DNA of 64,000 nt from positions 63,676,001 to 63,740,000 of the forward strand of contig OZ076409.1 of the NCBI GenBank assembly GCA_964187785.1, written 5' to 3'. Positions 13,893 to 62,956 of the stretch are shown piece by piece; the first letter of the stretch is position 1, and every line of letters starts with the position of its first letter. The stretch comes from Amphiscolops sp. MND2022 (Eukaryota). A program made the translations under genes and the position numbers. The notes below the pieces were generated by a model that worked only from the letters and a program-made list of their open reading frames with translations, was not told the origin of the DNA and ran no database searches.

Positions 13893-15262
13893 TATTTCTG
13901 CGATAGCAGGAATATTATTGAAACCTCAAGATTTCACTTTTCACTAAAGTTTTTGTCTTGTCGTGATACTGAAACAATTCAGATATTTTGTTCGGCAGTG
14001 AGTATAAGCGTGAGATTTAAATTTCTCAAGCTGCCGACTATTCGTTTCTCGAGCGATGGAACGAGCGAGTCGTATTTATGCTTTCGTACGCCGAGTTATT
14101 GAGATGAAGCAAACGAGTATTAATTATTCGTACGCCGAGAACTTTGCCTGCATTCAAATGCGAATGTGAAACTTCGTCTACGCTTAGTAGATATAGTTGC
14201 TTTAGTCCGAGGTATGTGCGCTATATAAATGATTACGATATGCTTCTATTATTGAAGATGAAAGCCAAAATGCAGAAATGATAGTGTTCCTCGCAGGGGC
14301 CCATTTTGTAAGAAAGCGCCAACTAAAACCTCAGACAGAAAAAGCAACACTGCTTGTGTTTGAATTGCCTATGCTGAGCTAGCTTTTTTCATGTTTGAAA
14401 AAATGAACGAAATCAAAAGGTTCCCGTTTTGTGTCTTTTGGCACATTTCAATTTCTTTGGAAATCATCTGCCTAATGTTTGAACAACGTTAAGGTGTGAG
14501 GCAGCAAAAGTGTTAGAGGAGAAACAACTTGATTTTATACACCAGCACATGAAAGTACGAACAGAACTGAAGTAATATGAATGGGAGAACAAAGTCTACA
14601 AAGCAGCTTGGAAACTTTTGGTTACAGTTTTAAGGCTTTGTTCAGCGGACCTTCGTACATTTGAATAAAGACGTCTAAAGAAGTTTTGGAACCCAATTGA
14701 GGCAGTTTTTTTGTCACAACTGATTTTTTTAGTTCATCCTTGTTTTTCGCGGACCAATCATCTGCGTAAACTTTCATTCTAAGAACTTCCCAAATTTTAT
14801 TGATTGACAGTACTTGGGAACAGATCGGCGGGTTCCCAAACTTTGAAATGTAAGAGATATTTTCTAGCTAGTCTCTGACTGATCTTGCACAGACTGCTGT
14901 CGCTTTATTGGGCCAAAAGACTACGTTTCGAAGTGACGCGTGAATTTTGATAATTAATGATTTGAGATTTCTCATATAAATACGTTAGTTTGAAATACAA
15001 GCCTTGATTGACCATAACTTGATGAACAACAACAACAACAACATTTTTGCCTATGCAATGCCTATGCGGCCCTTATCAACGACATTTGTCGGAATTTTCG
15101 TATTCCAGCGTACTTTACGATTGATGGGGTCACTGTTTTGTCGCTAGAATAGTAACCGAGGTTTCCAGCGCATCTCGTGCACGATAAAGTGAACTAAGAC
15201 TCGTCATCCATGACCTTATCTTTGCTCCTCAACCATTTTCTCCAAAGCTCGTTCAGGCTATT

Positions 15263-15642: not shown

Positions 15643-17145
15643 TGTCGCAGGCGGCCGCCTGTGACGGAATATTATACCAAGTTGGACCCGAAGACGATGA
15701 CACTAATCCCGGACCGGGCGTTTTGCCTATTTGAGAGAAAAACTCCGCAATACGTTAATTATTTAGTTAACAATCTTCTCATGCACTTTAGTTCATTCAT
15801 TTATTCTTATTCATCTTTACATGTAAATATGAAGTCTTATTAATGTGACTCAAGGTCATTTTGACGGCATGAATAATTATATTTTGATTCAATCTTATGT
15901 AAATTAGTTGTTACACCACATTAATAATAATAATGTGAACTAGTACCAAAAGGTGCAAAACGCTGTACAAGCAGTTAATTTGATTGACGTTAATAATAAC
16001 AATAGAAAGCAAGATGACTACTCAAGTGAAAGGAAACGCGTTCAACTGGTACGCTGCTGCCGTCTAGTTGACGCGTAGTCACTTCGCTTCTAACCAATCA
16101 CGGCGCTACATTTAGTTATAGTTCAATGCCGTCATGTGGACGTTAGGTCCAATTAGTTAACGCATGTAGTATTAAATCTGTAGTTGCATGAAAATCACCG
16201 CTAACATGTACCTGTTATTAACCAGTATGTTGCTTCTATTTATAGGACCTATGACGTGTAGTCATATGTCACCTCCGTTGCTATATTTAGAATTGTGATG
16301 TAATAGTTATTTTTAATAATGATGTCATTACTATTTTTACCCAATGACACCCTAAATATTGAGTGTCATACTGTAGTTGCTATATATATGCAAATTTCCA
16401 GTAAGGGATTGATTCATTGTGATAACCTCAATACAAACCGTTCTGATATACACTTTTGATTCGACAATCTATTATTGAACAATACCTTCTTTTGATATGC
16501 CTTCAACTAGAAGACAAAAGGCGAAAGAGAAACGTTCAAGACAGTCTGACATAATGTCTGATATTGAAAATCTAGATGTGATGCTCGGAAATTACTCAAA
16601 CAGTGAAATTAGGGACCAAAACACGGTAGACCAAATAGAAATTGACCCTGAGTCAAGTAGACGGCAACAAGGTTTCAGTCATGAAGAAGGTAACTATAGA
16701 TCTCTTTTGAACACAAATTTGAGTGAGAATAGTGAAATTACAGTAGAAACTAGCAGAGCAATTAGTTCGGAAATTTCTTCGCAGATGTCAAGGAAATTGG
16801 AAGAAATGAAATCTGACTTAAATTCCCATATTATGGAGGTAATAAACTCTGCTATTGATGAAAAAATACTACCGAGCATCGAAAATGTCATAGTAAATCA
16901 CAGGGAGTGTAAAAACGCGAAATTGGACATTCGGTCAGATGGACGGCATCCGAGTAGAAACGTCCCTATGGACCATACTTTGGACCTTGGGTCATATGGA
17001 CGGCATAAAATTAAATTTGGCCAGCAGGTCCAGGACTCAAGAGAGAATTTTCCTAGACTAAGTAAGACAACAAATAACCTTTCAAATCATCAAATGGAAT
17101 GTTCGGGAGATTCTGAACAGAGTGAAAATGATGAAGGTTATGACA
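15643..17145 (+). repeat. 5' LTR of A
   Basis: Direct repeat of 30296-31798; CCAAT near 16094 and TATA-like sequence near 16381 upstream of the gag ATG at 16497. Confidence 0.97.
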
Positions 17146-18293
17146 TGGTGACAGGAGCCAACCCTACTCCACATGTAGTCCCTGAATTTCTGACCGGACG
17201 TCCCACGCAGTCCAGAAACAACATTCCCCATCAACAATGCGTCAACGATGACACATTAGATACCACCCTCCCGGCACAAATTCCCTCAAACCCTATCAAT
17301 GACCGGGAAATGCAGCCCCAAACACCTTTAGACCCCATAAACAGACTTGCCGATGTCATTATGGGAATGAACAACAAATCATCAGCACAAACACTGATGG
17401 TACGACCAGTCAATACTGCCACACTCACATTTGACGGCAAATCTGAAAAATTTGAACTGTTTGAAGACCTTTTTCACACGGTGATAAAGATGCAACCCGA
17501 GATGACGGAAGCTATGAAAATTAATCACTTTCATTCACTGTTGCGCAAAAATGCCCTGCAAACCTTCCGCAACATCAGTTCAGCAAATAGACAAACCTTA
17601 GAAGACGTACTAGCTGTGTTTCGTAGGAAATATGTCAAACCTGAATCCCAGGCAACTGCCAAACATAAATGGCACAAATTGGTATTTGACCCAAACACAA
17701 TGAAATTGCCCGATTTTCTCGAGGAACTCAATCAGGGCGCCGAAAAAGCCTTTGGCGAGCACGCACAAGCCATGATTGACAGTCTACTATACGCAAAACT
17801 TCCACCGAAACTCAAACGTTCAGTCAACATGGCGCGATTAGAGAATGCCACCTACGAAGAAATTGTCACTCATCTCGAACGAGAACTGGAGCTGAATGGA
17901 CTTGAGGAAGGCGACGACATTCCCGTTCCCACAATGTCAACAGCCCCGACAGCCACACGACCGGGTCAAGGACTCCTTTCATCAGGCATTGACCCAGGAA
18001 TAACTTGCAACTACTGCAAAAAACCTGGACATGTCAAAGACGATTGCCGAAAACTAAAACGAAAGGAGGAGCAAAAACGCAATGAAGGCTCGAGTACCAA
18101 AAAAGAGTACCCAAAGTGCCCGACTTGTGACAAAACCAATCACCCGGCGGAGAGATGTTGGAAAGGCGCTGGAGCCCACCTCAAGCCCAAAAACCTCAAA
18201 TTGGATAGTCCAAAGGATGACGACACGACCAGTAGTCGTGATGACCCCACCAATAAACCCACAACTTCTATCCTTAAAAACTCAAAAAACTAG
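16497..18293 (+). CDS. gag: Gag of A (598 aa; first 216 codons inside the LTR)
   Basis: Intact ORF; capsid-like region (FDGKSEKFELFEDLF...), CCHC knuckles CNYCKKPGHVKDDC and CPTCDKTNHPAERC. Confidence 0.95.
   Translation: MPSTRRQKAKEKRSRQSDIMSDIENLDVMLGNYSNSEIRDQNTVDQIEIDPESSRRQQGFSHEEGNYRSLLNTNLSENSEITVETSRAISSEISSQMSRKLEEMKSDLNSHIMEVINSAIDEKILPSIENVIVNHRECKNAKLDIRSDGRHPSRNVPMDHTLDLGSYGRHKIKFGQQVQDSRENFPRLSKTTNNLSNHQMECSGDSEQSENDEGYDMVTGANPTPHVVPEFLTGRPTQSRNNIPHQQCVNDDTLDTTLPAQIPSNPINDREMQPQTPLDPINRLADVIMGMNNKSSAQTLMVRPVNTATLTFDGKSEKFELFEDLFHTVIKMQPEMTEAMKINHFHSLLRKNALQTFRNISSANRQTLEDVLAVFRRKYVKPESQATAKHKWHKLVFDPNTMKLPDFLEELNQGAEKAFGEHAQAMIDSLLYAKLPPKLKRSVNMARLENATYEEIVTHLERELELNGLEEGDDIPVPTMSTAPTATRPGQGLLSSGIDPGITCNYCKKPGHVKDDCRKLKRKEEQKRNEGSSTKKEYPKCPTCDKTNHPAERCWKGAGAHLKPKNLKLDSPKDDDTTSSRDDPTNKPTTSILKNSKN
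17146..17157 (+). promoter_or_regulatory. Primer-binding site TGGTGACAGGAG, inside gag coding sequence
   Basis: Directly follows the LTR end; the identical 12-mer follows the 5' LTR of B (58556-58567, minus strand). tRNA identity uncertain (Leu-like acceptor stem). Confidence 0.85.
18284..18290 (+). promoter_or_regulatory. -1 ribosomal frameshift heptamer A AAA AAC (gag to pol)
   Basis: TCA AAA AAC TAG ends gag; pol is in the -1 frame; same sequence in B (57444-57450, minus strand). Confidence 0.85.
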
Positions 18294-21200
18294 ATTTGCC
18301 ACGACTCCATATTAATGAAAAATTACGCATCAGACAATATATAATATCTGATCCTCCTACTATATACTATACTGAATATTACTCCTCCATTAAAGAAAAT
18401 TCATCAGCTGACTGGCAGCAGCAGGTGAAGCATTTGCCTACTCACTTACACAACCCGGACCTTCAGTCTGACAGACAGCACTCTAATACTACGACCATTC
18501 GCCCCCTTCCCCTAATCGATAACTATAACCCATATTATCCTGACCCGGACTTTGGATTCGACCCCTATTGGGACATTCAAATCTACAACCAACATCAGCT
18601 ACACTTCTACAACAACTTTACCAAAAACATTGCAGATATCGAACCTGATCAACCCCACATTGATCAGATGTTGAACACAAAACTATCCACGGCCTCTGTT
18701 GACCCCTGGCAAAATGTGTGGATTAACACCAATTCACCAATCCAGGAGGCAATATCCGAACAACTTCCACACAATGGACCTTTGGTCACATTGACGGCAA
18801 CAGTGGAAGAGCGCTTTGTGAACACGCTAGTCTCACGAAATGGTGAACCTGACTACGTCCCGTTGACGACCAATTTGGGACTCAAATACAAACGACGGAT
18901 GCTCTACTTCCCCATGGATTTTGGCGAACTAACTTTAGATGGCCTTGTAGACACGGGAGCCCTATCTAGCGCTATCCCAGAAGCTGATCTACGTAAAATC
19001 CGATTACTAGCCCCTCAGTCAATAATTAAAGAGGGCCCAGCACCCAACTTCCAGATTATGGTAGCCAACGGACAGCTGGAGACTCCAAAGAGCACAGTTG
19101 AACTCAAATTCGAGGTCGGCGACATCGATTTCCACGAGATCTTCATTGTTATGGAAAAACTCACAAGTCCGTTAATTGGTCTCTCGTTCCTGCAACGGAA
19201 CAATACCATACTGGACATGCGTCAAGGAGTTTTAAACTTCCCTTTCTTCTCCATGCAATTGAAAACAGCTGACCACAAGTACACTAACGTCATGGAACCT
19301 ATCTGTGCACGGGAGGATATAACTATTCCCCCCAACGACAGACATATGGTTTCCATGTTCTCACAACTATATGACGACACAAACGTCACTGGAATTCTTC
19401 AACCGAGCAACGACCTTGCAGAAGATGGTGATATAACCTTCTGCGCCGCTCTAGTCACACTGACCCAAGGTCAGGTATCAATCCATGTCAACAACTTTAC
19501 TGACCAACCGTACACCCTCAAAAGAGGTGCGCACATTGCCAATTTCTCTATCCTCACACCAGAGCAGATGAAATACGTCAAACCCATTGATCCTGTGACC
19601 ACTTGGCATCTTTTGAAGGATAACCCGGAAAATGCTGCCTATTATGCCAGTAGCCTGATCAAATCTCCGAAAACTAGCGATGATAGTGAGAACTATTGGT
19701 TCCCTACTCCAGAAGAACCAGGAGATCCTCAAACTCACACACCAATACAACAAAGAATCTTTAGGGAACTACGAAATCTCCAAGATCTAGAGAAACTCAA
19801 CCCTCAGGATGACCCTGAATCGCGGAAACAATTTCTTGCTAACTTCGACTGGACAGACTCTACGCTAAATCCAGCCGAAATTGCCCAAATTGAAGAATTA
19901 CTTGTTGAATTTCACGATATTTTTGCACGACACCGCTTTGATATAGGTATGAACGAGGACTTCAAGGTCACTTTGACCCCTAAAGATGACTCTCCTGCCT
20001 ATAGTCAAAGCTTACCTACTCCTATCAACCTCAAAGAAGATATCCTTGTAGAACTAGCCCTACTACACCGATATGGGATTATCACAACTCTCCCATTTTC
20101 CAAATATGCAAGTCCCATTTTCGCCCAGAAAAAACCTAACGGCAAACTTCGACTCCTGGTCGACCTCCGAAAGATCAACAACCTGATTTCCGACGATTAT
20201 ATTAACAACAACCATCCTGTCAGCACACTAACAGATGCTGCGCAGCACATGGCAGGCAAACGATTATTTTGCAAACTTGATTGTTCTCAAGCATACCACT
20301 GCCTTCAGATGGCTGACCAGAGGTCAATCGAGATGCTAGCATTCAATTTTGCCAGCAGAACCTTTGCCTATCGTCGACTTGCCCAAGGTCTCAGCAGAGC
20401 GTTGTCCGCATTCTCGAGCTTTATGCGCGAATACCTGGATAAAGTGATAAAAGCTGACCAATGCGCTCAGTACGTAGATGATATTGGGATAGCTGCAAAC
20501 GACGCTACCCAGCTCATCAACAACCTTCGAGCAACGTTCCAGTGCATCAGGACCGCTGGTCTCAAACTAACGATGCACAAGTGCCATTTCGGAGCCAAGG
20601 AAATAGACTTCCTGGGACGCACCATCACTCCTGAAGGGGTGCGGCCACAACGACCCAGGGTCCAGAATTTCTTGGAAAAGACCAAATTCCCTAAATCCAA
20701 GAAAGCACTTCAAAGATACTTGGGATTCTTGAACTACTACCGTAACTACATCCCAAGGCTCTCAGAAAAACTCACACCGTTTTTCAAGTTATTGAAAAGT
20801 GATGCCAAAGTCATGGTGACACCCGATCTGTTAGAAAAATTCACCGAGATCAACAAAGCTCTTGACCGATGTTGTGAACTGGCACTCAAACAACCTCTAC
20901 CCGATAAACAGATAGCCCTGATGACAGACGCTAGTTTTTCGGCAGCAGGTTATGCAGTTCTCATCGAGGACGATCCGATGGAAAAATATACTTCGACGCG
21001 AAAAGCCTTCGCACCTGTAGCATATGGATCCAAGACCTTTAGTCCAGCCCAACTGAAGATGTCCATTTATGCGAAAGAATTCCTAGCAATATTCTTTGCA
21101 TTCAAAGAGTTTGGCCATATCTTCTGGGGGACCCCGAAACCGGTGATAATACTAACAGACAACAAGTCAGTCACTCGCTTTTTTCAAACAAAAATCATTC

Positions 21201-23473
21201 CACCCACATTGTGGAACGCGTGTGACTACGTTATGCAATTCAGTTTCACAATAGCCCATATACCTGGCAAAAACAATACTGCCGCTGACTACTTGTCACG
21301 TCTAGAAATCTGTCCCAAAGAAAAACTCATACTCCGGATACGAGAAGATATTTCCACCACACCCATTGAACTCAACGTCCAATCAGCGGGAGTTACTGAA
21401 GAAGAACAGATCTTCTATACGGACGAGGATGAAGAAACAGAAGAACAAATCTGGAAACGCAAACAAGACGCCAGGTCAAACCCAATGAATCAACCTCCTG
21501 ATATTTTGTTAGATCATCTTAGCACTCATGATAATACACAATTCCAAACTCAAAATATACAAAAACTGGCAAAACCAACCACCATGGCTATAGAACAACA
21601 GAACGACCTTATCTTGCATCAATTACGACTCAAACTGCAAAAAGAAGAATACTCTGAAACCATCTTACAGCAAGATTCGCGCTACCGACATTACTGCCGC
21701 CAAATTGACCGTCTGTCCGTACATGATGACATCATTCTCAGAGACTACTACGATGAAACAGGCAGTGTCCAATTCCGCCAAGCATTATTACCGAAACACC
21801 TAGTCACAGAATTACTCCAATCACTACATGGTTCCGCGAACAAACACCCGGGAATCTCAAAAATGCTGCACGAAATTCGACGAAAATATTACTATCCTGG
21901 AATCGCAAAAATTGTCAAAAAGTGAGTCCAAGGGTGTGAAATTTGTATAAAAGACAAAAGAATCAACAATGCATCCATAACACCTGAATTACTCATTTTA
22001 CCTGAATGGGATCTTGGCCGGGAAGATGCCTTACAAATTGACATTCTGCCCAACTTACCCCCAAGTGGAGGTTACGAAAATGTCATAACGGCTCTGGACG
22101 TGTTTTCGAGATATCTTTTTGCCTACCCAGTAACGGACGCTTCGGCCATCAATACGGCAAAGGTCATTATTGATATCATGACAAAACATTCCTACTTGCC
22201 GACTACACTCATCACCGACAAAGGCACTGCCTTTACGTCCAAACTACTAGAAGAAATTACCAAAATTTTAGGGATTCACCTTCGGTGCGCGACCACAAAG
22301 CATCCTCAGACGATAGGCAAACTAGAACGCACTCATGCCAGCCTTAAGGGCAACCTTAAAATGGCATCAGGCGAATACAGGCGTCAATGGCACAAATATC
22401 TCCCATTGGCCGTCCTTAATTATAACACGACCTATCATTCAAGTCTTGGATGCGAACCCACCCGAATTTTTCACGGAAGAGTACCCTATAATATCTTAGA
22501 CCATCGGTTAGGATTAAACCCTAACCCAAAGGTCACTCCAACGACTGATTTTGCTGAAGAATTTCAAAGACGCACGCAAATATTAATTGATCAAACAAAG
22601 AAAAACATTATGCAATCATATTTAAAGTACAAGGAATATTATGACCGAAAGGCTAAAGCAGCTCCTCTACAACAAGGAGATTTTTGCTTCATTTTACAAC
22701 CTCTAGCTGACCATCAAGGCTCTAAAATTCCTTTTCGTGAATTTCGTTGGATCGGACCGTACGTCATAGAAAAAGTTTTACCTAACGACAACTATATTGT
22801 TCGCAAACTTAGTACTAACAAAACGCAGATATTACACCGAATACGCCTTAGAAAATACACTCCAAATACTACCCCACAAGACATTCGTCCCGAAGGAAAT
22901 TTACAAGCAGACGATGAAATTATTATTCCACAAGATGATCTGTACATCATTTCATGGGAAACCAATTTTGACGATTTCTCTCCTAACTCTGAAAATCGGA
23001 CTGTTACTAATGAACTCCCTACCAATTCCGATGAACAAGACGCTATAATCACAGATTTGGACCTACGGTCCACGCGACGGCAAACAAATACTGACGCCGC
23101 TCGCGCTGATGATACTGATAGTGACTCACGTTCAAACGAAATAAACGAAGCGGACCTTCGGTCCGCGCGACGGCAATCAAATACTGAGGCTGATAATACA
23201 GAGCAATACTCAAGAAATGCACACAATGAAGACCGTCAGTCCGCTAGACGGCAACAAAGTACCGAATCTGAAAACGATGAATTGACCAATCAGGACCTTC
23301 CTAGAGATGAAAATTCAGAATTTTCAACTTCTGGGGGGAACGATACAACCGTGCCCGATGTATTAATTGAAGAAACTGATGATTGTGTTGTAGAAAATGA
23401 AAGTCCTAGGGGAGGGAGATATAACCTACGTCCCAATCCTACCCCCAACTTTACTGACGAATACAGATACTAG
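18290..23473 (+). pseudogene. pol: Pol of A (PR, dUTPase-like, RT, RNase H, IN) with one in-frame TGA at 21923-21925
   Basis: LVDTGA protease, YVDD RT, TDAS...TDNK RNase H, integrase HHCC/DDE and GPY motif. ORFs 18296-21925 and 22100-23473 share a frame and are separated only by a TGA where B has Trp (KTWVEGC). Confidence 0.93.
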
Positions 23474-23700
23474 TTAGAACATGTAAATTCACTGGCCCGA
23501 CTCAACACCTTTTGACTCTACAATTATCTTTTTATGGGCCTCGACTGACTTGTAGTCCACAATAACAGATCAAACACAAGCATCATAATGACACAACTGT
23601 ACAAACAGACTTCAAATAACGATAAAATAAAAAACTCAAGACTGACAGACAAACGAAAGATACATAAATACAACTAAAAACAAATGTACATATAGTACAA

Positions 23701-26700
23701 TTAAGTGTCTTTAGTAAATGAAGGGGATGGCAATTCACTATCAGATTGCCGCTTAACTGGCGAATTGTTCAAACTGGAGGCAGGAAGACTCTTGGTAACG
23801 CTCCTACCTTTTGGATTCTTGAATTGTATCCTTCGAGAATCAGTCTTCTGAGGGACAGCCTTCGGTTTCAAGACAGAGAGAATGTGGGAACGGTCAAAAT
23901 AATCCAAGCCGTCCCATGGACTGTATGTGTCGGAGAATGCGGAACTTCCAAACGTAGGCTCAAAAGCCAGGAACTCAGAGATCGAAGAAGACGTAGTCAA
24001 GGCGTCGATACTGCGGCCCACATTTATGAAAAAGGATTGCACTGGAAGGATGGTGTCAATCAATTTACTTTTCGGATCATCAGTCCGGACTGGTCCAAAC
24101 TTCACTGAGGGCATAATTGTGTAATCTTCGTCGAGGCACAAACAGCTCAATTTGAAAATACGCGCAAGATGAGGTCGGGACTTTAAGGCATCATGACGCA
24201 ATATGAAGGTAACAGCATCAATGATTATAACCCTGGGCTGGTCCAACTCGGGCATCTCCTTCCTCAATTCGTCCAAGAAGGATAGGTATTCTTCAGTGCA
24301 GACGGATTCATCGGCAGGCTGGAAATACCCACGAAGTTGGAAGCTGCGAAAAAGCAGCTTGAAACAGTAGAGTGCCTGACTGAGTGGCGAACGAAACATG
24401 ATGTCCAGGTCGAAAGATCCGAGTCCTCTGACTATGTCGGACGTAAGTTGCAAATTACTTTGAGCAGCGTGGAACAGATAAGCGACATATGCGCGAGCAA
24501 GACGTCCAAACTCTTCCTTTCCTTCCTTCACAAGTTTGGGCAAATTGGCACGGTTCCCCTTCCTGTCACTCAGTTCTTTCTCTGCCTTGATCTTACAAGC
24601 GACGTTCAGTCGTTGCTCCAGTTTGGATCGCGCAATAAAGTCAGTCACTGTAAGGGCTCTAGCATCAGAAACAACTATGTTCAAAATTCCGGACAAATCA
24701 CTTTCTGGTGGAAGGCTTTTGGGTTTGATGCATCGTCTGCCGAGCTTGAGAAGGAATTGACACAACTGTCGGTAAATATGAAATCCGTGATCACGTCGTT
24801 CGACCAAGTGTGGCACGAAACTAGTAGTGTCTAAATAAAGTATAATATTAAAATTACGCAACCTAACTCAGCGCTATAAACAATGAATAGGAACCACTCA
24901 CAATCCCTGACAAGGCGATAGAAGAGCTCAAGCCGGCAGAGGAACAATTCATCACTGAGCATCGCTCTCTCAAGATTCTGCGGCTGAAAAACAAGATAAT
25001 AACATGAGAAATTTATTTTGGACTTGAGGTCGCAATGACGGCAGAAGCTTACTTGTTTCCTCACCCCCATCATTTCATGGGGCGGAGCGTGAGTATTGAG
25101 ATAAGTAGTAATGCTGGCCCAATTGGCGAGAAGCTCCTGACACAGGGTAGGTAATGTCTCCAGCTCGATTTGACAAGTCCGTACTGCCTAAAATTACTGG
25201 ACTTAAGAACTCAGTTAAGACATAACAAATCAATACAGACTGGGGAAATGACAAACCTTCGCAAGGACGGGGGTTAGGAGAGTCCAATCACAGTCGAGGC
25301 ATCCTCCAAGAAAGACAATGAGATATTTCAGCACAGAATGAAAATCTATCCGTCCGAAAACACTATAGCTTTCTTTGTGCATCAATCTGGCTAAGGAGAA
25401 TTCAGCAAATTGGAGTGGTCGCTGTAGCCCATGTTTACTGAATGGCGAATTGTCTAGAATCTGAATCGTTTCTAGGGTACCACCAGAACAGCTGACGATA
25501 TTGGGAGTAGTTGAGAAGACGGCCATGAGGTCACTGATCAAACTAAGTTCGGCTGAGCTTTGTCCGAGAACTCGTCCGGTACGTTTCAGGAAGACCCGGC
25601 ATAACTCGTCTTTTCGCCAGAACCGGATGAAAACAAGCAGAAAGACTCCCTGCTTCACGAATTCCAGGGAATATTCTCCTGACTCGACCACGTGTGTGCC
25701 AATATCACGAATAGTCTGCAAGAACAAGTGATGGAACAGGACCTGAAAGAACAACAACTAACTTTTAGACATTGTTAACCAAAGGTCAGAAACGGACAAC
25801 AAGTCAGCGTGACGGCAATAAGATACTTACGGACAAGCGTTCTTTACTCCAATCGAAGTCTGTAAATAAGGACTGGTGGTTGACTACAACTCCAATATCC
25901 CGCCACAGGTTCCTCAAAGCACTGATGTCTCCAAAAGAGCGCAAATAATGACCGAGGACTGAAACCTGCACTTTCACCCTGTTCTCCGAAGAGGATGCCA
26001 TGTAATCCGTTCCTCTCAGATAATCGTCATAAAATGGCAGTTTCTCACCAATGTCGACGAGTTCAACTCCAATGAATTTTGGCAGTTCAAGTTGTAGCTC
26101 GTACGGTGTCAGTAGCCTTCCGTCCCCACCGCGGACATGGTGCTTCACCATCTTGGTTACTGGATCTTCAGTCGCAAGATGATGATATCGCCACTTTTGG
26201 TCCCTTCTCAGGTGCTTTTCGGTGCCATGGTGGCGGAGGATTTCTCGTGCTCCCTGACCATAAATTGATACATTGCCCTTGCAAATTTGACAGTATATCT
26301 TGTATGGATTCCATCGAGGATCCATGGGCCCAGACACGAAAGTTTTAGTCCACTCCATGCCTTTAAAATACGCTTCCTTCATGATTTTGCAGGCACGGGG
26401 CACTCGATGTCGATTTCCACTCCTGTTGAGAGATGGTTTCTTGCGAGGTTTTTTCCGAGGAGTAGGCTTAGACTTTTCAGCAATAGCTTCCGCTTTTAAC
26501 ATGGCAAGAGTTTGGGTCCCCGGACTTTCAACTCGGGGTTCACCTTCTATTGACATTGGGACAGTCTGACTGCACCCTGGGGGGCCGACAGGCGGCGGAG
26601 CGAAAGGCTGACTCTCCCCGGACTTTCAACTCGGGGTTCACCTTCTATTGACATTGGGACAGTCTGACTGCACCCTGGGGGGCCGACAGGCGGCGGAGCG

Positions 26701-28232
26701 AAAGGCTGACTCTCAAGGTCAGAATGTTCATAAGCATACCCTATGCTGGCAAACTCATCATCGCTCCTTAAGGCTCCACTGGTATCGCTAGCCTCTCCAG
26801 ATAACAAATCGGATTGCACCCCAGGACTTTGAGTCCGGTAACTAGATCTCTTGGGGGTGACTCTGCCTGATGGAGGAAATTGTGGTGTTCCAAGACTCAA
26901 TCGGCACGTCTGATGAACCAGGTTCTCCATTGCCTTCAGAGAAGACCTAACTGCTTCGTCAGCGACGACCCTCAGAATGTTGCTGACTTGACTCTCATTA
27001 AGGGCTAAAGTTGTATGGCCCGGCGGTAGCATTACTGGAGTCACGGCCTCAAAGCATTCTTTTATCATAACGCGGCTGCTTGCTGAAAGTTGGGGACTTC
27101 GCGTCGCCTCCTCTGGAAAATCCACGGATGTAACACTACCTGCGTCACTGACTCTCAATCGACTCTTGTCCAAAGGAGCATACAGAGCATCCGCTACGGT
27201 TGAGCCAGCAGGACCAGCTGACTCATGCCCGGTATCACTGGCAAATCTATCGGAAGGCACACGTGGACTAGCGACAATTGGGTCGTTTGATCCAAATTCA
27301 TCCGTCGAACTAAGACAACCCTCAGAGTGTGATGAACCTTCTGTCTCAGCATTAGATATGGAAAGCTCTTTTCTAGTCTCACCGATTTTGACGCAGAGTT
27401 TTTGAATCTTCGCCTCAGGTGGCTTATACATCGATTTGAGGTTGCTCTTGATAGGGGCGACAGGGGAATCCAAGAAAGCGACCCTTGATACAGAGTCCGA
27501 ATCGGTTTCAGTGTGGTCTGGTGCATCTCGCTGTGGCATCAACTCTAATGTGATGCTCTCACTGCACTTGCCCAAGTTGCCGTCACTTGGACCTTGGGTA
27601 CGATCTTCGAGAGAATCGCCTAACTGTTGCCATTTTCGAGCTATGTATGCCCCTCAACTCTCGTCAGTGCTGCTGCTTTCCACACCGACAGTTGGTACAA
27701 CGGTCTGTGGAGTTGTTGGCGGTTCAGATTGATTGCATAGCTGAGGATGTTTGCGGCATTACAGTTAGATCCTTTTCCTGCACTTGTTCGGATTCTTTTG
27801 CCTGAGAGCCCTCGGGAATGATTGTAAAATCCATCTCCGTAACAGTCTCGGATCTGGCCGGGGTATCCGTTTGAAGAGTAGCTTCCTTTTGATTGCAGTT
27901 TTGATCACTCAACAAAGTGGGGCTTTCAGCGTGGGGGGATGCAGTCACAAAGGACTCGCTGGTCTCCATTCTTTCTTCCTCCGCATTCAATTGGAGAGGT
28001 TGGTCGTTGAACTCATTATCTAAACGAAATGAGATAAATAAGCGCGGCTCACTTCCTGAATATGAATCCATCTTAGCGCTTTGAACAAAATACTTCCGGA
28101 AGTTCCTTTGACATAATGTTCATACTGTATGTGAACATTTCACGATGGAGGAAGTGACTTTGTTAAAATTAAGAGCCCTGATCAAGCCTAATTTTAACAC
28201 ATTTAAAAGAACCAACCTGACGCTGAATCCAT
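23701..28232 (-). pseudogene. Antisense spliced accessory gene of A (BED-type Zn finger, hAT-transposase-like), disrupted. Predicted exons 28232-28217, 28019-25831, 25742-25257, 25187-25053, 24983-24902, 24830-23701
   Basis: GT-AG introns at the same positions and phases as in B; internal exons 486, 135 and 82 bp in both; CQIC...RHHGTEKH finger. Lesions: frameshift near 27740, TGA at 27654-27656, 98-bp tandem duplication at 26517-26714. First mini-exon less certain (alternative ATG at 28071). Confidence 0.8.
26517..26714. repeat. 98-bp tandem duplication frameshifting the antisense gene
   Basis: Two adjacent copies with period 98; removing one puts ORFs 27575-26547 and 26556-25804 in one frame. 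Confidence 0.92.
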
Positions 28233-28847
28233 GAAGGGTTGGCGGAATTGATGAGATCCTTTTGACACTTGCACTATAAGGAAATTGGATGTTTCTGCAG
28301 CAATGTCCAAATGGTGATTGCTTCAATACCCACTCAAGAGGAAGATGTAACTGTTGCTGGGTACTCAAGGCCAGTGGAGTAAAATTAGTTTTGCTGCCCA
28401 CGAAGAGGGTTGATAGTGTCCAAAATAGAAATCGACAATACAAAATTATGTGATTGGAAGTATAGCTTAAGTTATGGAATGTAGCGGAATCACTAGAATT
28501 AGATTACAGAAAATCAGTGTGCGACTCAAGGTCAGAGAGACTATATAGATTACAAGGTAATGCTGTATAGCTCAAGTGATGCTGCTTGAGAAGACAATAA
28601 TAAACTGAAAGCCAAGTTAGTGCTGAATACTGTCTGGAATGGGACTTAACGTCAACTTGACGGCAGTGTATTACTAGTTCACAATCAAGTATTATTTAAC
28701 AAGTACTTACGAATTGGACGATGAGTCATCATGACGGCACAACGTTACTTGTTACCAAATGTGCTTTATTTCACTTCCTCTACTCAACAACTACTCTTTT
28801 GACTAATTATTACCTCCTACCACTAATTTAGAGTCCCGGACTTCTTA

Positions 28848-28951
<104 letters not shown>

Positions 28952-29583
28952 GTTACTTGGATGTCGTGGCTACATGTAAGACTTTCTTTTATGTTTCCAT
29001 CTTCTCCTTTCCTTTAGTCATGCTCTTCATTCACAGTACATGGTATGGAACCTGCCAGTGAAATATTCATGCACTCCTAACTGTTTCATTTTAATTCTTT
29101 TCTTTCCCCTAAAAAGGCATCGATTTCTTTATTTCATTTCATATTCAAAAAGTTATTAGTCGTATTTTACCAATCAATCCAGCGTCATATGATTGGTTAT
29201 CATCGTTGCTGCCGTCGAAAGGACCGCCGGTCTTTCAAGTTGATTGTTGACAGAAAATTAAGAAGAACAACACTTGAATTAGCAGGCAACTCCTTTGAAG
29301 GAGTAAGCAAACCCTCTATAAGTGGCAATTAAAATTTTGTTATAATAACAACAAAACAGGCTTTGGCGGTCTCAATGAAAGCAAGAAACCTAAATAAGGA
29401 GAGTTTGGGAGAATCTAGCGGGAATGGTACCTTACAATTACCCCCGCCAAATACGAAGGCTGACCTAAGGTCAACTGGACGGCATAACTTCATTCATCGC
29501 CCTAACAATTTCAAAACCAGTAGACTGCTTCTGAACTGCTCAAAATTGCACGAAAACTGTTTCTATCACGTTATTCACGAGAA

Positions 29584-30387
29584 ATGTCTTTGCAGTTTAA
29601 CACTGAGGGTATAAATGGACCATTAGTGAGTCTTTCCTATCGATCCTCTGATGAAGAAATGGAAGTAGATTCCATCTACTCAGTACACGATAGCGACGAT
29701 GACGACATTCAAGTCATAGCCTGCTACTACGAAAATCAGGAATTTCCACCACAGCTGACGGCAGGTAGAGCTATGACTACGGACTTGTCTGACTGCCTCG
29801 GTTACTTAAGCTTACCGGAAACCACTTCGGAAAGCTACTTTACCGAGCCGACGGAAGAGCTTATCGATTGGTTCGTCGGAAGTCCACCGTCAACCTACTC
29901 CGGGGTACAGCCACAACAACATCCTATAGCTCAATGTAGTCAAATTGACCCATTGCCTTACTCGCCATTATCGCCGCCACTGATCGATCAATTCCCCAAC
30001 TACGCACCAAGGGTCAACGATCATGAGGTCCAAGAAGAGCCGCAATGGGCTAGGAACCAACACATCACTGGCCTGGGCATCAGCGCAAGCGGACTATGCG
30101 GACAGCCCAATGACGTGCTCTACGGTGGTTGTGTTGTCTGCGGGAAATCGTTCCAGGCAATAAAGGAAGAGGTGACACTCGGCTTTCTAGAAAGTACTCA
30201 TGTTCCTGGAGAGACGTACGAACAACGACAAGCGAGACGGCGAGCCTTCGAAGCTGGAATGAAAGCCGGATCTTTCATTGTCATCCCCCGGGGAGTGTCG
30301 CAGGCGGCCGCCTGTGACGGAATATTATACCAAGTTGGACCCGAAGACGATGACACTAATCCCGGACCGGGCGTTTTGCCTATTTGA
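29584..30387 (+). CDS. Sense accessory ORF of A (267 aa), ends 92 bp inside the 3' LTR; function unknown
   Basis: Intact ORF homologous to 46785-46000 (SPxSPP, GCxVCGxS, AxExGxxAG, VSQAAACDG, PGxLPI). Exact start uncertain. Confidence 0.85.
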   Translation: MSLQFNTEGINGPLVSLSYRSSDEEMEVDSIYSVHDSDDDDIQVIACYYENQEFPPQLTAGRAMTTDLSDCLGYLSLPETTSESYFTEPTEELIDWFVGSPPSTYSGVQPQQHPIAQCSQIDPLPYSPLSPPLIDQFPNYAPRVNDHEVQEEPQWARNQHITGLGISASGLCGQPNDVLYGGCVVCGKSFQAIKEEVTLGFLESTHVPGETYEQRQARRRAFEAGMKAGSFIVIPRGVSQAAACDGILYQVGPEDDDTNPGPGVLPI

Positions 30388-31798
30388 GAGAAAAACTCCG
30401 CAATACGTTAATTATTTAGTTAACAATCTTCTCATGCACTTTAGTTCATTCATTTATTCTTATTCATCTTTACATGTAAATATGAAGTCTTAATAATGTG
30501 ACTCAAGGTCATTTTGACGGCATGAATAATTATATTTTGATTCAATCTTATGTAAATTAGTTGTTACACCACATTAATAATAATAATGTGAACTAGTACC
30601 AAAAGGTGCAAAACGCTGTACAAGCAGTTAATTTGATTGACGTTAATAATAACAATAGAAAGCAAGATGACTACTCAAGTGAAAGGAAACGCGTTCAACT
30701 GGTACGCTGCTGCCGTCTAGTTGACGCGTAGTCACTTCGCTTCTAACCAATCACGGCGCTACATTTAGTTATAGTTCAATGCCGTCATGTGGACGTTAGG
30801 TCCAATTAGTTAACGCATGTAGTATTAAATCTGTAGTTGCATGAAAATCACCGCTAACATGTACCTGTTATTAACCAGTATGTTGCTTCTATTTATAGGA
30901 CCTATGACGTGTAGTCATATGTCACCTCCGTTGCTATATTTAGAATTGTGATGTAATAGTTATTTTTAATAATGATGTCATTACTATTTTTACCCAATGA
31001 CACCCTAAATATTGAGTGTCATACTGTAGTTGCTATATATATGCAAATTTCCAGTAAGGGATTGATTCATTGTGATAACCTCAATACAAACCGTTCTGAT
31101 ATACACTTTTGATTCGACAATCTATTATTGAACAATACCTTCTTTTGATATGCCTTCAACTAGAAGACAAAAGGCGAAAGAGAAACGTTCAAGACAGTCT
31201 GACATAATGTCTGATATTGAAAATCTAGATGTGATGCTCGGAAATTACTCAAACAGTGAAATTAGGGACCAAAACACGGTAGACCAAATAGAAATTGACC
31301 CTGAGTCAAGTAGACGGCAACAAGGTTTCAGTCATGAAGAAGGTAACTATAGATCTCTTTTGAACACAAATTTGAGTGAGAATAGTGAAATTACAGTAGA
31401 AACTAGCAGAGCAATTAGTTCGGAAATTTCGTCGCAGATGTCAAGGAAATTGGAAGAAATGAAATCTGACTTAAATTCCCATATTATGGAGGTAATAAAC
31501 TCTGCTATTGATGAAAAAATACTACCGAGCATCGAAAATGTCATAGTAAATCACAGGGAGTGTAAAAACGCGAAATTGGACCTTCGGTCAGATGGACGGC
31601 ATCCGAGTAGAAACGTCCCTATGGACCATACTTTGGACCTTGGGTCATATGGACGGCATAAAATTAAATTTGGCCAGCAGGTCCAGGACTCAAGAGAGAA
31701 TTTTCCTAGACTAAGTAAGACAACAAATAACCTTTCAAATCATCAAATGGAATGTTCGGGAGATTCTGAACAGAGTGAAAATGATGAAGGTTATGACA
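30296..31798 (+). repeat. 3' LTR of A (second copy of the gag 5' end from 31150, reading into flank to 31854)
   Basis: Direct repeat of 15643-17145 followed by TSD CTATA. Confidence 0.97.
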
Positions 31799-36563: not shown

Positions 36564-36992
36564 TTTAGTCGGCGCATTTTAACAAAATAAGCCCGACTAT
36601 TACAGTGGCAAGTTTTTTGTTCTTTTTTTTCGTCAGATAACAGAATGTATGCGTAGTGGACACTTTTTCTACAGAACTACTAAACTACTGATCCGGCAAG
36701 CGGAAACGCATCTAACTTAGTGTAAAGGGCCCCCTTTCGTGTACTCAATTTTTAACGTAAGATACAAAACCGGACGGGACTACAGCGTCCCCCCTTTGAA
36801 TTTTTTCCGGCACTGAGTGACTTTTTTTCGAATTTTTTCTGTCGCCAAAGGGTCCCCCTTTCATGTTTTTAGATATTTTGCAGCAAACTGGATTTTCAAA
36901 AAGTCGAAAGGGTCCCCCCTTCTACAATTTTAAAAACTTTGCGCTTTTTGAGCCTTAGATATAGCGCCGACTTTAGACGTTCCCGTCTTGTT
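36564..36992 (+). mobile_element. Compact DINE-1/HINE-like element
   Basis: Subterminal inverted repeat AGTCGGCGC (36567-36575) / GCGCCGACT (36964-36972), nearby partial inverted copy GCCCGACTA, internal AAGGGTCCCCC repeats, 3' hairpin AGACG-TTCC-CGTCT, then TGTT. Confidence 0.65.
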
Positions 36993-39470: not shown

Positions 39471-41050
39471 CATAGAAATCAAATCACGTAAATTTTTCTT
39501 CCACGTAAATCACGTAAACCCATAGAATTCAAATCACGTAAATTTTTCTTCGAGCGATATGTATTTGTAGAGATTTTTGGAATTTTTTGGGAATGACGAA
39601 AATGACCCCAAAATGACCACGGAAATGACAAAAACTCAACAATTTCCCAATTTTCAACGTTTTTATGCAATTTTTGTCATTTTTTCGGTCGCAATCGTGG
39701 ATAAGTATGTTGAAAACGTTCAACAAGGCACGAATCCGTTGTCCAATAGTCTTCTTTGAAGAGATGAATCCGGTTTTTTAAAGGAAAAATTACACCAAAA
39801 ATAACAAAAATTCCAAAATTTTCGATTTTTAACGTTTTTATCCAACTTCGTAGATTAAAATGTTGACAAGAGTGAACAAGGAACGAGTTCGTTGTCCAGT
39901 AGTCTTTTATGAAGAGATAATTGCGGTTTTCAAGTTGAAAAGTATCTCAAAGTGGCACCGAAATAGACAAAAACAAAAAAGCTCAAACTTTCAAAGTTTC
40001 TATGCGTTTTTGTCAAATTTATGACAGACTTCGTGGATTTGAATGTTAAAAAGTGGCAACGAGGAAAGCGTTTGTTGTCTAGTAGTCTTTTATAAAGAGA
40101 TTGTTGCAGTTTTCTTAGTGGAAATTTTCTCAAATTGACACCCAAAATGAGGAAAAACCCCAAAATTTTCAAATTTTCAATGTTTTCATGCAGTTTTTGT
40201 CAAATTGTCGATAGACCTCGTGGACTAGAATGTTAAAACCCCTACACAATGGAAACACTTTTCGTTTCAGTGAGCTTTTGTTGAGAGATAAAAACAGTTT
40301 TTAATAGAAAATGCCTCAACTTGACTCAGAAAATGTCGATAAATTAAGTTTTTGTTGTTTCGATGCAATTTCTGTACAATTTTCGAGCGCTTTCGTTATA
40401 AGTTCTAACACAGTCAAAACGAAAAAAACGAAAACTATGCAATACAGTATTTGAAGAATACGTTGCAGGGTTTTGCTTCAAACACACTCCAGAATGATTC
40501 CAAATCTGTCGAGAATTCGAGAAAGTTCAACGTCTTCTCGTTTTTTTGCAACTTATATGTACTTTTCGAATCGTTTTGGAGTCAGAATGTTAGCAAACGT
40601 TCAACAATGATTGAACTCATAATCCAGTAGGCACTTGAGGAAGAATTTGCAGACATCGGTTGGAAAATGGTCAGAATTGACCGCAAAAAGTCGAAATTTT
40701 GCCCATTTCTGACATTTCCAGTGAGTTTTTATTTGAGACTAGAAAACTTTGACATAACATAGGAAAAAAGCTTCCAAAAACTTAATATGGTAAAAGTAGG
40801 TCCGCAGCACGTTTTTGGAAGAGAAATTTGCATGTTTTATGGCAGAAAGTTTCCTCAGAATGACCCGGATAATTCAAAAACTGAGAATTTGTATTTTTTG
40901 AAACATTTCATGCCCTTTTTATACAACTTTCAAGCTACTTCCTTGCAAAAAGAGGTTTTAGAAACTCAGTAAAGACTAATCCCGGTATCCAGTAGGCGTT
41001 TTTGAAGATATAACTGTTATTTTTCTGGAATTGGCCTCAAAACCACCCCA
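39471..41050. repeat. Diverged ~150-190-bp tandem repeat array, preceded by a 30-bp direct repeat (39471-39500 / 39521-39550)
   Basis: Recurring GTTGTCCA(A/G)TAGTCTT...GAAGAGAT-like unit near 39738, 39891, 40074, 40265, 40622 and 40987. Confidence 0.6.
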
Positions 41051-41803
41051 AAATCCAACAAACGACAAAAAAGCACGTTTTTTGACGGATCAATCCAAAT
41101 TTTTGTTCAAACCACGAAAATTTTGTGGAATAAAATTTCCATACACCTGAACTTTGAAACAAAAAGGTATTCAAAACGCAATTTGGGAAAGAAATTACGA
41201 TGAAGTTCTTCGAGTTTACAACAAAGGTGTAAGAATTCCCGAACTTTCTAAATTTTCGACAACCAAGTAAAAATTTTGGAACCTTTCCGAAAAATTACTT
41301 CAATCAGAAAACCCATGGGCTCAAGATTGAAACGTGTAGCTGCCGGCAGTGTTTCGGAAAGATATCAGACTAGGTTTTGTTCACAATTTTCAAAAAATTT
41401 TATTGAAAACGTAAAATTTTTTTCGACCTTGTTTGTGAAATATTTAATATTCAAAATGCTTCAAGCAAAATCACTAGAAGTGGAGTGAACTTTCAAAAGG
41501 AAAAAGTTTTTGCAGTTTCCCACGCAGGAAGAAAACCTGAGAATGACACAATAACAAAAATGAAAAGAGGCATTTCCCATAATCATCAAAAAAACTCCTC
41601 AGTTCCAAAGTATCAAAAGTAACAAAGAGGTCACCCCAAGACTCGGGAAACTGATCTCCTTTACAGAAAACCTCAAACACTAAAACTTGTGAAAATTGTT
41701 TTTCGAAAATTGTCTTCCAAAAGGTTCTCTTCACGCGGTAAGTCGAATAGTGCCGAATATACAAAAAGTGGGCAGCTACTGCAGAAATAATAAATTAGGT
41801 ATA

Positions 41804-42234
41804 CAGCCTTGTGCATATTAGTTCCATCACTCTGTCAAATTAGCTCTTGGCTTCAATAAAAACGGATTGTTTTGGGCGTCCTCCCTGGTCTCCGCGAAGG
41901 CGACAGCGTACCCACCTTCCGATAATGCGAAATAATATTGGAAATGGTTCTTTGTGGTACTAATACCATTTTCGAAACTTGCCATTGGCTATATTTTTCC
42001 CGCGTTTTTTGAAGGATCAATTTTCTGACACATTCAGACACTGTTTTGCCTGGCATGTTTGCTTTACTAACCGCACAGAAATTCAAACTGACAACTTGGT
42101 GGAAAGCAACAGTGTATGTGTTGTTGAAATACAAGGAATTTAAATGTTCGGCGTGAAATCAAAACGTGAAAAAATTAAATTAAATATAGTGTGTGAAAGT
42201 AGACAAATGATCGAACAAATATGCACAAGGGCTG
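41804..42234 (-). mobile_element. Internally deleted Tc1-like DNA transposon (431 bp)
   Basis: TA on both sides; imperfect ~33-bp TIRs CAGCC(C)TTGTGCATATT...; retains the transposase N-terminal HTH (MPGKTVSECVRKLI...SRRPGRTPKT). Confidence 0.85.
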
Positions 42235-44218
42235 TAGCCTTTAAAGCAGGACTAAGATGAATCAAAGTTTTTTTCTTCGAACTTTTTTTCACAGTGCTTT
42301 GGCTATTCTTGAGCCGCAAATTTATATAGTTGTAGAACAATTTGGGGCGGAAAATATCTCGCTGCTCAGTGGGCGTCTTGTTTCGTTTATATTGAGCCGA
42401 ATGTTCTCAGGTTTGCAGCCTGTCAAAAAGAAGTCAAGATCTTCGACTGAGTAATTCTTCCCGGAGTCGTTTATATTTCAATTTCCGTATTTCAATTCCC
42501 GTATGTATTTTTTTTGGAAATGTGGACGTGTTTTTGCCAGTGTAAAGCCGCGTCCGGGGGGTTACTAGCATCTGTAGTAAGCATGGTTACTGTCTGCTGC
42601 ATAGTGTCATAAACAAAAATGTTCTCAGTACGTTGTTCAGTCGGCCTGTTTTTTCGAAAGTTCCGTAAGAGCTTTGCCATGTACTGTATGCCTTCGAGGA
42701 ATGGTTTACATTCCTGTGTATTTTCCTGCGGGTGTGGGACAATATTGTTCCGGTGTTGTGACTCTCAATGAAATTCATTCAATCAAAATGTTGAGTCACA
42801 AGATCCTGTTATGTCGTCGTTTGGTACTTCCTTTTCAATAATTTCATGTCACAGCCACTTTGTTTGGTTCATAGAAAATTCTCGAATTCTTTGGTTTGAC
42901 CTGTTTTAATATAGGGTTTTAATTTTTGAAGGATTTTGGTTGTTTCTTTTGGGGTGTTTGCTGGTGCGTGTTTCCACAGATACGCCAACTGATCATGCGG
43001 GTTTACAACACTTGAAAGCTCGGTCGATATGTTTTTGACTAGTCAACCAGTCCACAGAACCCTTTTGAGAATCTTTAATATTTTGTTTTTTTTTCGGCTA
43101 AGGCAAAAACACGTTGTCGGCTGCTTTTTTTGGGTAATTTCATTTAACCGTAGACGTAATTCAAATCATGTTTTGATATTAGACACCGTTCGGTATCTAG
43201 TGATTTTTACCGGAATTCGGTTTTAAAATTATGCAAATTCGAATCTGTGGTCTAATCTTCCTACAAGTGTCATATAGATTTCGTCAGTCAAGTTATTTCG
43301 TTAATGATATGGCGTTGTTTACGGTTTTCACTATCGGAGATACGGAACGGTTGAACTTCCTAAATAATGTTGGAGTAGTAGCAAGAATACCTTCGGAGAA
43401 AGGTGATGTCGAGTCTGTTCCCAAAGTAGATCTGTTTATATATTAGATTTTTATTGTTTCTCAAATTTTCTCGGGCGATATCCCATCTACGATACTATTC
43501 TTAGTTTTCTCGTTCTTTATACCCTGAAATGCCTATTAAAAATCAAAAATGGTCACTATTGCAACGCATATAGAAAGATAACATCTATATTTTACACCTG
43601 TATTCAGTTTCCGCAATTTTGACATGCTTAATTTAGTCCGACATTGAGTTCGACTTAAAGCCACTAAGCAAAGAATTCCTATTAAGGTTTCCTTTCCACC
43701 TTAGACAAAATTTTTCAAGGAAAATTCCCAGGGCAACAAAGTGCATCACCTTTTGTCAGTTTTTGAATGCAATTTTCTCAAGTAGCAGTTTGCCTAATAC
43801 CAAATTTTTTCTGCACGAAAATGACATGAAAATAAACGCTAATTTTCTGCAATGGATTAGCTTATCAATAAGAGTCAGTGAGAAACTTTTTGCATAATGA
43901 TGCTAAATTCTTACAGCAGTAATTTGGCTGCTGCAGAAAACACTGGCATGGAAAAATGCGAATTTTCATGAAGTCATGCACTTCCATTGAAAAATTCGAA
44001 ATCTTTATTCAAGTAATGAAACGCAATTTTCGAAATGTGGATGCTTTTAAAATTTATCATTTCAGATTGTATTAATTCAATCTGAAATGATGAATTTTAA
44101 AAACATCCGAATTTTGAACACATGACAAAAAATTTTAAAATCAAGGCTTTCTTAATTGAGGAAATGATGGTATTTTGGAAAGTTTTTCGGAAAGTTTTTG
44201 CTGTTGCACAAATATTAC

Positions 44219-62953: not shown

Positions 62954-62956
62954 CCC

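Follow-up and report, generated by a model that had tools for sequence, protein, structure and literature searches.

A conserved accessory ORF that reads into the 3' LTR of Ty3/gypsy-type retrotransposons, and its candidate role as a nuclear SUMO-binding factor

Results

LTR retrotransposons in the window

The window, the whole 64,000-nucleotide stretch of DNA that was analysed, holds the LTR retrotransposons A and B and a solo LTR of a third family.

15643-31798, plus strand: LTR retrotransposon A, with TSD CTATA on both sides and TGTC...GACA ends
15643-17145, plus strand: 5' LTR of A, which contains the first 216 gag codons and adjoins the PBS-like TGGTGACAGGAG
16497-18293, plus strand: gag of A, with a DUF1759-like region and a CCHC knuckle
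18278-23473, plus strand: pol of A, with PR, dUTPase-like, RT, RNase H and integrase regions
30296-31798, plus strand: 3' LTR of A, 1503 bp, with 3 differences from the 5' LTR
44219-46088, minus strand: 3' LTR of B, with a length of 1870 bp and 99.0% identity to 58568-60433
9929-11841, plus strand: solo LTR of the third family, TSD CCCAC

In both elements gag starts within the 5' LTR, at base 855 of 1503 in A (16497-17145) and base 1275 of 1866 in B (58568-59159), and crosses the LTR end into the PBS-like TGGTGACAGGAG, which adjoins the LTR in A and B alike and whose letters help to form a Met codon. This read-through is the mirror image of the arrangement of the accessory ORF at the 3' boundary. 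Scans of the window for tRNAs and for Rfam families returned 0 matches each.

The TG...CA ends (TGTC...GACA) and the duplications CTATA (A) and CCCAC (solo LTR) agree with the 4-6 bp TSD of Ty3/gypsy-type elements; the Pfam order in A and B is PR-RT-RH-IN, and the RNase H matched PF17917/PF17919, with no PF00075 match, as in retrotransposons. The whole pol of B scored best against Ty3 Gag-Pol (155.5 bits), and the PR-RT-RH piece of A reached 103.7 bits against foamy virus versus 92-93 bits against Ty3. By their ends, TSD and domain order we class A and B as Ty3/gypsy-type elements, of a clade that the pol scores do not settle; since a canonical polypurine tract (PPT), expected of Ty3/gypsy elements, is lacking in A, B and a further copy, L001 (both below), they are termed a gypsy-type variant rather than textbook members. 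Membership of Troyka was rejected, because the ends described for Troyka are CG with a 3-bp TSD (PMC12440569) and those found here are TG..CA with 5 bp.

Between protease and RT, A carries a dUTPase-like stretch (19301-19543; PF00692, E 1.5e-5), for which the homologous stretch of B gave no match; a dUTPase in such a position is described for Burro, fungal and rotifer elements (PMC6431247). The pol of A contains a stop at 21923-21925, although the LTRs of A differ at only 3 of 1503 bases. A scan of the ORFs of both elements revealed none that was env-like.

An unrelated, decayed gypsy-type element at 3121-9034, with 182-bp LTRs, a PBS-like site and a canonical PPT, served as a control. B is preceded by a partial second copy (40778-48608 versus 58568-64000), which at about 62955 passes abruptly into a repeat of the 40778 flank (offset 22179); the junction reflects either a tandem or segmental duplication or a misassembly. 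Other repeats in the window are an inverted one of 365 bp and several tandem or dispersed ones that are degenerate (5761-6125, 12040-13900, 36715-36992 and 39598-40238).

An accessory ORF at the 3' LTR boundary

Each element carries an additional ORF that runs into its 3' LTR.

29584-30387, plus strand: accessory ORF of A (P0001), intact, 267 aa plus TGA, with the final 30 codons within the 3' LTR
46000-46785, minus strand: accessory ORF of B (P0002), open, 261 aa; the LTR of B starts at 46088
60345-61130, minus strand: second, near-identical copy of the B accessory ORF (P0003), open, 261 aa, in the duplicated stretch

The ORF of A enters the 3' LTR (U3) for 92 bases including the stop, and the GTG codon at 30295-30297, the Val of VSQAAACDG, is the source of the first TG of the LTR, whose copies start at 15643 and 30296; in this the original prediction was correct. 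The A and B proteins are 28% identical over 236 columns (E 1e-16). The copy in the partial duplicate of B lies in a 4390-bp stretch 99.2% identical to B and differs from the B ORF at 3 coding bases (2 synonymous, 1 nonsynonymous), so that it is not independent and adds no evidence. In the solo LTR the accessory tail SQTAACDG...PGTLPI* is preserved in frame (9929-10014), and a scan of metagenome contigs yielded a further DNA copy, L001, whose ORF of 244 aa is intact (the one copy among 118 pattern matches). Translation thus confirmed what had been claimed of the ORF, namely that it is intact in A, B and the partial copy (the last not independent) with its tail in the solo LTR, and the motifs quoted for it, SP(L/M)SPP, GC(V/M)VCG(K/R)S, A(F/Y)ExG(M/L)xAG, VSQAAACDG, DDDDIQVI and SVIYISSSESEE, are all present in A/B.

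The accessory proteins form a large, recently active family. At E<=0.01, 108 of 503 and 202 of 631 candidates were homologous, and the rows listed were all from ENA and without Pfam assignment. A profile search of 1.84 billion entries gave 723, 378 and 77 representatives (50% identity) at E<=1e-3, 1e-10 and 1e-30, of which the best 150 were listed. Among 460 collected proteins, 162 were 240-300 aa long with both end motifs; these fall into 14 groups of less than 50% identity to one another, across which length is near-constant. No fused form was found among 7997 candidates of 493-2000 aa, which is weak evidence, and none of 18 pattern matches in viral contigs was a relative.

The accessory ORF is constrained as a protein

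Constraint was assessed by one-sided Fisher tests on the 56 codons, gap-free in A, B and L001, that begin with GCxxCG and reach the LTR start. Identities at codon positions 1/2/3 were 25/36/12 for A-B (p=3e-5), 32/35/23 for A-L001 (p=0.016) and 29/31/14 for B-L001 (p=3e-4), in comparisons that are saturated and pairwise and are not dN/dS. Within this block, 13 of the 18 residues identical between A and B are encoded by different codons. The same holds within U3 for the C-terminus:

30367-30387, plus strand: C-terminal PGVLPI* of the A accessory ORF

At each of the five conserved residues of the PGxLPI tail, the sequences of A, B and the solo LTR differ synonymously. The observed open frames of 244-267 codons in A, B and L001 compare with a longest forward open frame of 77-86 codons on average, and of 180-208 at most, in 1000 mononucleotide shuffles of each; the other five frames contain 9-17 stops.

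One explanation is that no functional protein is made and that the frame is open by chance or through LTR signals, a reading to which the conservation of VSQAAACDG at the DNA level lends itself. The codon-position bias lies upstream of the LTR, however, and was seen in all three lineage pairs, so that the lack of upstream coding constraint which would have undone the original prediction was not observed; together with the synonymous tail and the near-constant length across groups below 50% identity, this leaves that explanation only a slight chance. The ORF almost certainly encodes a functional protein, and the data support a real, protein-constrained gene that, judged by its sequence, is not env.

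The start of the LTR is conserved as DNA, and no canonical polypurine tract precedes it

30296-30319, plus strand: first 24 nt of the 3' LTR, with the integrase end TG and a predicted 10-bp stem with a 4-nt loop; encodes (V)SQAAACD

The codons of VSQAAACDG are identical at 25, 25 and 26 of 27 bases in the three pairs among A, B and L001, third positions included. VSQAAACDG, listed earlier as a shared protein feature, is therefore present as described, but its conservation is largely explained by constraint on the DNA. A 10-bp hairpin is predicted from the first base of the LTR at 30296-30319, 46065-46088 and 9929-9952, and A and B differ only in its loop. Its z-score was -3.9 on 27-nt pieces, which were chosen around the hairpin, and just -0.65 and -1.54 on 70-nt windows; that of the solo LTR was -1.6. 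The LTR-start motif occurs in 295 of the 460 collected proteins; all ten pairs are possible in 257 of the 295, and the variant of the clade P0415/P0425/P0428 implies one paired double change in the stem. The loop codon is also near-invariant, so that a protein constraint or a sequence-specific one may also act on VSQAAACDG.

A canonical PPT, usually 8-49 nt long (PMC7264820), was not found before the 3' LTR of A (30266-30295), B (46089-46118) or L001 (its positions 1159-1188). The purine runs there measure 6, 2 and 5 nt, respectively, against 11 nt (8843-8853) before the LTR at 8854 in the unrelated gypsy-type element, and purines make up 7, 5 and 6 of the last 15 nt against 12 of 15 in the control. 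The statement that the ORF overlaps U3 and the position of the PPT thus holds for the location and fails for a canonical PPT. In all three lineages AG precedes the TG of the LTR, and the pre-LTR stretch of B is pyrimidine-rich and splice-acceptor-like.

These features bear on a possible role in reverse transcription or integration, in which the protein would be packaged with Gag-Pol and would help plus-strand DNA to start at the hairpin instead of at a PPT, or would anchor the integration complex on SUMO-rich chromatin. Recent copying of these ends follows from the LTR identity of 99.0-99.8%, and three lineages lack a canonical PPT; a stem is predicted from the first LTR base, AG is shared before TG, and the gene never leaves the LTR-boundary site, as judged from the motif in the collected proteins. 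However, limited space can by itself account for the overlap with the priming site, a short or impure primer may be enough (the plus-strand primer of Ty1 is reportedly impure), at least one pair is impossible in 38 of the 295 motif variants, and the z-scores on the 70-nt windows are weak. We consider such a role improbable. Recently copied LTRs without an adjoining PPT would challenge the standard account of plus-strand priming, and elements of this kind would escape PPT-based annotation.

An acidic N-terminal half and a small Cys/helical domain

Upstream of the LTR the protein of A contains the following features.

29632-29658, plus strand: LSYRSSDEE, a degenerate remnant of the SIM-like motif kept by other lineages
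29695-29718, plus strand: DDDDIQVI, a second SIM-like motif, found only in the clade of A
29962-29979, plus strand: SPLSPP, a [ST]PxSP motif and predicted proline-directed phosphorylation site
30127-30294, plus strand: conserved domain, residues 182-237, with CxxCG followed by a predicted helix-loop-helix (190-204 and 212-228), without indel in A, B and L001

A SIM-like motif in the acidic N-terminus had been proposed as a feature shared by A and B. Both proteins have such a motif, but the two are not homologous: DDDDIQVI in A and VIYISSSESEE in B occupy different alignment positions, and the B motif aligns with LSYRSSDEE of A. With patterns that were written post hoc, after the sequences had been seen, a hydrophobic core with acidic or S/T residues beside it was found in all 14 groups; in ten it is a hydrophobic core followed by SS and acidic residues, in four an acidic stretch with IxV[IL], and no group has both forms. 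The same patterns occurred in shuffles at a mean of 0.42 and a maximum of 3 (500 shuffles), a control that overstates significance because of their post hoc origin. For two broader SIM patterns there was no enrichment (15 of 67 members versus 17.6 in shuffles, and 14 of 67 versus 12.1). In a tree of 34 of the 35 chosen rows (P0104, unmatched by the CxxC pattern, was left out), the second form marks one clade that includes A (support 95/92) and in which the first form has decayed; the switch between the forms is one evolutionary event. Neither form was seen in 3 of the 34 rows, one of which is N-terminally truncated. P0428, a member of 455 aa, has a long acidic N-terminal extension with a SIM-like motif of its own.

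The [ST]PxSP motif is present in 13 of the 14 groups. Across 67 members the mean net charge is -18, and the helical hairpin region is near neutral (mean +0.7). The classic NLS pattern, K[KR]x[KR], occurs in just 8 of the 67; the psi-K-x-E pattern occurs in 36 versus 8.25 in shuffles and lies within a predicted helix, in 4 of the 14 lineages. AlphaFold2 modelled the protein from 66 sequences with a mean pLDDT of 51 and a pTM of 0.30, confident solely over helices 190-204 and 212-228 and with the acidic N-half poorly structured; residues 150-267, modelled from 116 sequences, gave a mean pLDDT of 68 and a pTM of 0.52, the same hairpin scoring 86-97. The second helix of the hairpin carries conserved Arg218/Arg219.

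In alignment A2 (66 sequences), C183 and C186 are each conserved at 98%, C118 at 94% and H160 at 92%. Selection for A2 used ACD and the tail, and that for alignment A4 used CxxCG and CD, which builds in the invariance of these residues; the 66 sequences of A2 were not selected on C183/C186, and the invariance of C244/D245 is both built into the selection and fixed by the DNA. C118 is missing in L001 and P0377, and there is no universal fourth zinc ligand; the most divergent clade lacks an obvious equivalent of H160. Zinc binding is plausible from these residues. Zinc-finger Pfam scores of members of A2 and A4 were weak (E>=0.004), and a model of a homodimer with two Zn, made without use of the alignment, scored 0.00, which speaks neither for nor against such a dimer. 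Rad50-hook and C2H2 identities were rejected as weak CxxC matches, and kinship with Gag was rejected at an hhalign probability of 0.4%.

The profile and structure searches that had been proposed returned no Pfam, PDB or fold match. Pfam gave 0 families for P0001 and P0002 at E<=1, NCBIfam and PHROGs no usable match for six accessory proteins, and the ESM Atlas none for P0001; PDB searched by profile gave 0 matches in one search and 2 at E>1 in another. For both models, VIA-align reached a best Z of 4.4, with 0 of 48,161 chains at Z>=5, and Foldseek found 0 matches at E<=0.001 in BFVD and PDB. No DNA-binding fold or catalytic motif was recognised in the protein. The claim that it lacks a signal peptide or TM segment, and hence is not env, was upheld by the acidic N-terminus and a hydropathy scan in which 0 of 67 members reached 1.6 over 19 residues (maximum 1.54).

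A protein that is mostly unstructured and has several conserved short motifs, the C-terminal PGxLP[IL] among them, could be a host-cell effector like nef or sag that would take over the cell's kinases or ubiquitin/SUMO ligases to act on the cell cycle, the germ line or stress responses; planarian Burro elements are described with apoptosis- and ubiquitin-related domains (PMC6431247). Against this, the accessory protein has neither a membrane anchor nor a myristoylation-type N-terminus, and as no env was found in A/B, no extracellular phase is indicated. An effector role thus appears decidedly unlikely.

The antisense gene and expression of the accessory ORF

23701-28083, minus strand: antisense gene of A, which faces the accessory ORF head-to-head and is interrupted by a 98-bp tandem duplication (26517-26712)
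47861-52067, plus strand: antisense gene of B, interrupted
29524-29583, plus strand: open in-frame stretch upstream of the accessory ATG of A, reading KIARKLF

A and B share the antisense gene as a series of conserved blocks. Four gaps, at corresponding places in the two elements and with donor- and acceptor-like ends, lie between the blocks; several have GTAAGT donors and pyrimidine-AG acceptors, with predicted introns of about 80-90 nt. The gene product has a Cys/His finger-like motif, and the last block shows a weak likeness, at 0.90-0.91, to hAT dimerisation-domain clusters (recognition 2018, below 2300). These observations bear on a two-gene regulator, in which the antisense product would bind DNA and the accessory protein would supply an acidic activation or SUMO-binding function. 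The two genes are head-to-head and conserved in both elements, the last block points weakly to hAT, and an antisense partner would provide the targeting step that is otherwise missing; the evidence, though, consists of adjacency, and in the single inserted copies of A and B the antisense gene is interrupted and the accessory ORF intact. The suggested partnership of the two proteins thus found no support, and we regard a two-gene regulator as quite unlikely.

As the last gene of a 16-kb element, the accessory ORF would need a subgenomic RNA. This would come from splicing or from an internal promoter that also serves the head-to-head antisense gene. A common promoter or acceptor motif upstream of the ATG did not stand out from shuffles and is at most a lead (the best three-way 11-mer score, 9, was reached by 10 of 100 shuffles). 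The candidate AGs for a homologous cis-splice acceptor lie in different phases in A and B, and such an acceptor was rejected for that reason. The spacer between the divergent genes of A contains a (TTA)n microsatellite (28850-28945). Upstream of the ATG and in the same frame, KIAKK is found in B (46786-46860) and in a third lineage (P0267/P0268), giving KIA[RK]K overall; the stretch is possibly a longer N-terminus of the protein or a DNA motif.

A described counterpart in an animal LTR retrotransposon suggests an RNA factor like CERV or Rev, nuclear and phospho-regulated, that would bind full-length element RNA, perhaps at the LTR-start hairpin, and aid its export or stability. CERV of Cer1 is described as a nuclear accessory protein that has a helix-hairpin-helix and a Cys loop and depends on a Ser-Pro phospho-site (PMC10309623), features to which the near-invariant [ST]PxSP, the CxxC and the predicted hairpin with Arg218/Arg219 could correspond, and the genomic RNA would be about 14-15 kb long with many donor-like sites. 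The likeness is one of described features, however. CERV has 517 aa and is spliced from gag exons, and in A and B no phase-consistent acceptor was found that links the ORF to an upstream exon. The accessory protein is moreover strongly acidic with a near-neutral hairpin region, and the SIM-like motif is left unexplained. An RNA factor of this kind is therefore rather unlikely.

Discussion

A candidate SUMO-binding counter-silencing factor

We infer that an acidic unstructured half with a SIM-like motif and Ser-Pro sites, together with a Cys/helical domain, makes up the architecture of a nuclear adaptor; the accessory protein is probably nuclear. Our preferred reading, to which we give a probability of roughly 0.4, is that it may be a nuclear SUMO-binding factor that counters silencing or activates transcription. 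It would bind SUMO-tagged chromatin factors and, by competing with or redirecting SUMO-dependent repressors at the LTR, keep the promoters of the element active despite host silencing. The acidic N-half would carry the SIM with a phosphorylated SS-acidic flank, CK2 having a preference for serines in acidic context; [ST]PxSP would act as a proline-directed phospho-switch, and CxxCG with the helical hairpin would form a small docking domain, possibly stabilised by Zn. Counter-silencing is preferred because piRNA-guided transposon silencing in Drosophila is described as requiring SUMO (10.1101/533091) and because transposons can encode anti-silencing proteins such as VANC (PMC13547354). Against it stand the rarity of the classic NLS (8 of 67) and the lack of enrichment of the broader SIM patterns, and, no DNA-binding fold or catalytic motif having been recognised, how such a factor would be targeted to its own element is unexplained.

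The gene itself would be pinned to the end of the LTR, since the same codons also form the integrase end and the predicted RNA hairpin. A more sweeping picture is that these animal LTR retrotransposons belong to a lineage not yet reported, with an organisation like that of complex retroviruses, in which genes are read through both LTR boundaries, an RNA hairpin at the start of U3 replaces the PPT, and a SUMO-binding counter-silencing accessory protein works with an intron-bearing, hAT-derived antisense gene, enabling very high copy number; as a whole we hold this to be unlikely.

Comparison with known systems

HIV nef and MMTV sag are 3'-end accessory ORFs that lie next to or extend into U3. 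The likeness to nef, bet and sag that had been drawn for the accessory ORF stands for its position; no sequence or fold match was listed, though a remote link may escape such lists, and pol has the domain order and RNase H of retrotransposons. As the host element is of Ty3/gypsy type, the likeness appears to be an analogy of position only. Foamy virus tas/bet likewise provides a 3' accessory ORF with an internal promoter (PMC10534306), which for the A ORF is one of the two proposed routes of expression. These viral genes differ in that no env was found in A and that the codons of its ORF themselves supply the integrase end.

LTR retrotransposons are already known to carry extra ORFs (PMC7264820). 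The sense ORFs described there between pol and the 3' LTR of Ty3/gypsy elements are alike in position and orientation, in being kept by most copies and in lacking database matches; most of them, however, resemble env and have TM segments, and their place is upstream of the PPT, whereas the protein predicted here is soluble and its ORF crosses into U3 without a canonical PPT. Plant Retand and Grande elements also have a long region between pol and the 3' LTR, with an antisense gene that has a transposase-related domain and its own promoter and, in Grande, a nuclear product (PMC11963269; PMC7264820). This resemblance concerns the antisense gene of A and not the accessory ORF, and in A that gene has predicted introns and is followed by a second sense gene.

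CERV of the C. elegans element Cer1 is alike as a non-env accessory protein of an animal LTR retrotransposon with a Cys motif, a Ser-Pro site and a helical hairpin, and it differs in its length and its splicing from gag exons, in its G-like and ring-forming domains and in a proven export function (PMC10309623); no SIM is mentioned for it, and a search of that article for SUMO gave 0 matches. VANC, encoded by VANDAL DNA transposons of plants, resembles the accessory protein in the counter-silencing proposed here, and differs in its MAIN-like fold and sequence specificity (PMC13547354), with no similarity between the two proteins.

By sequence comparison the accessory proteins belong to no known family, and neither the family nor its combination of features was found among the titles listed by searches of the open literature. 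To our knowledge, few non-env extra ORFs of animal LTR retrotransposons have a function, CERV being one. The family offers short motifs that can be tested, and, if the SIM is real, a direct handle on whether animal retrotransposons actively counter SUMO-dependent silencing, in parallel with the plant DNA transposons that counter methylation with VANC.
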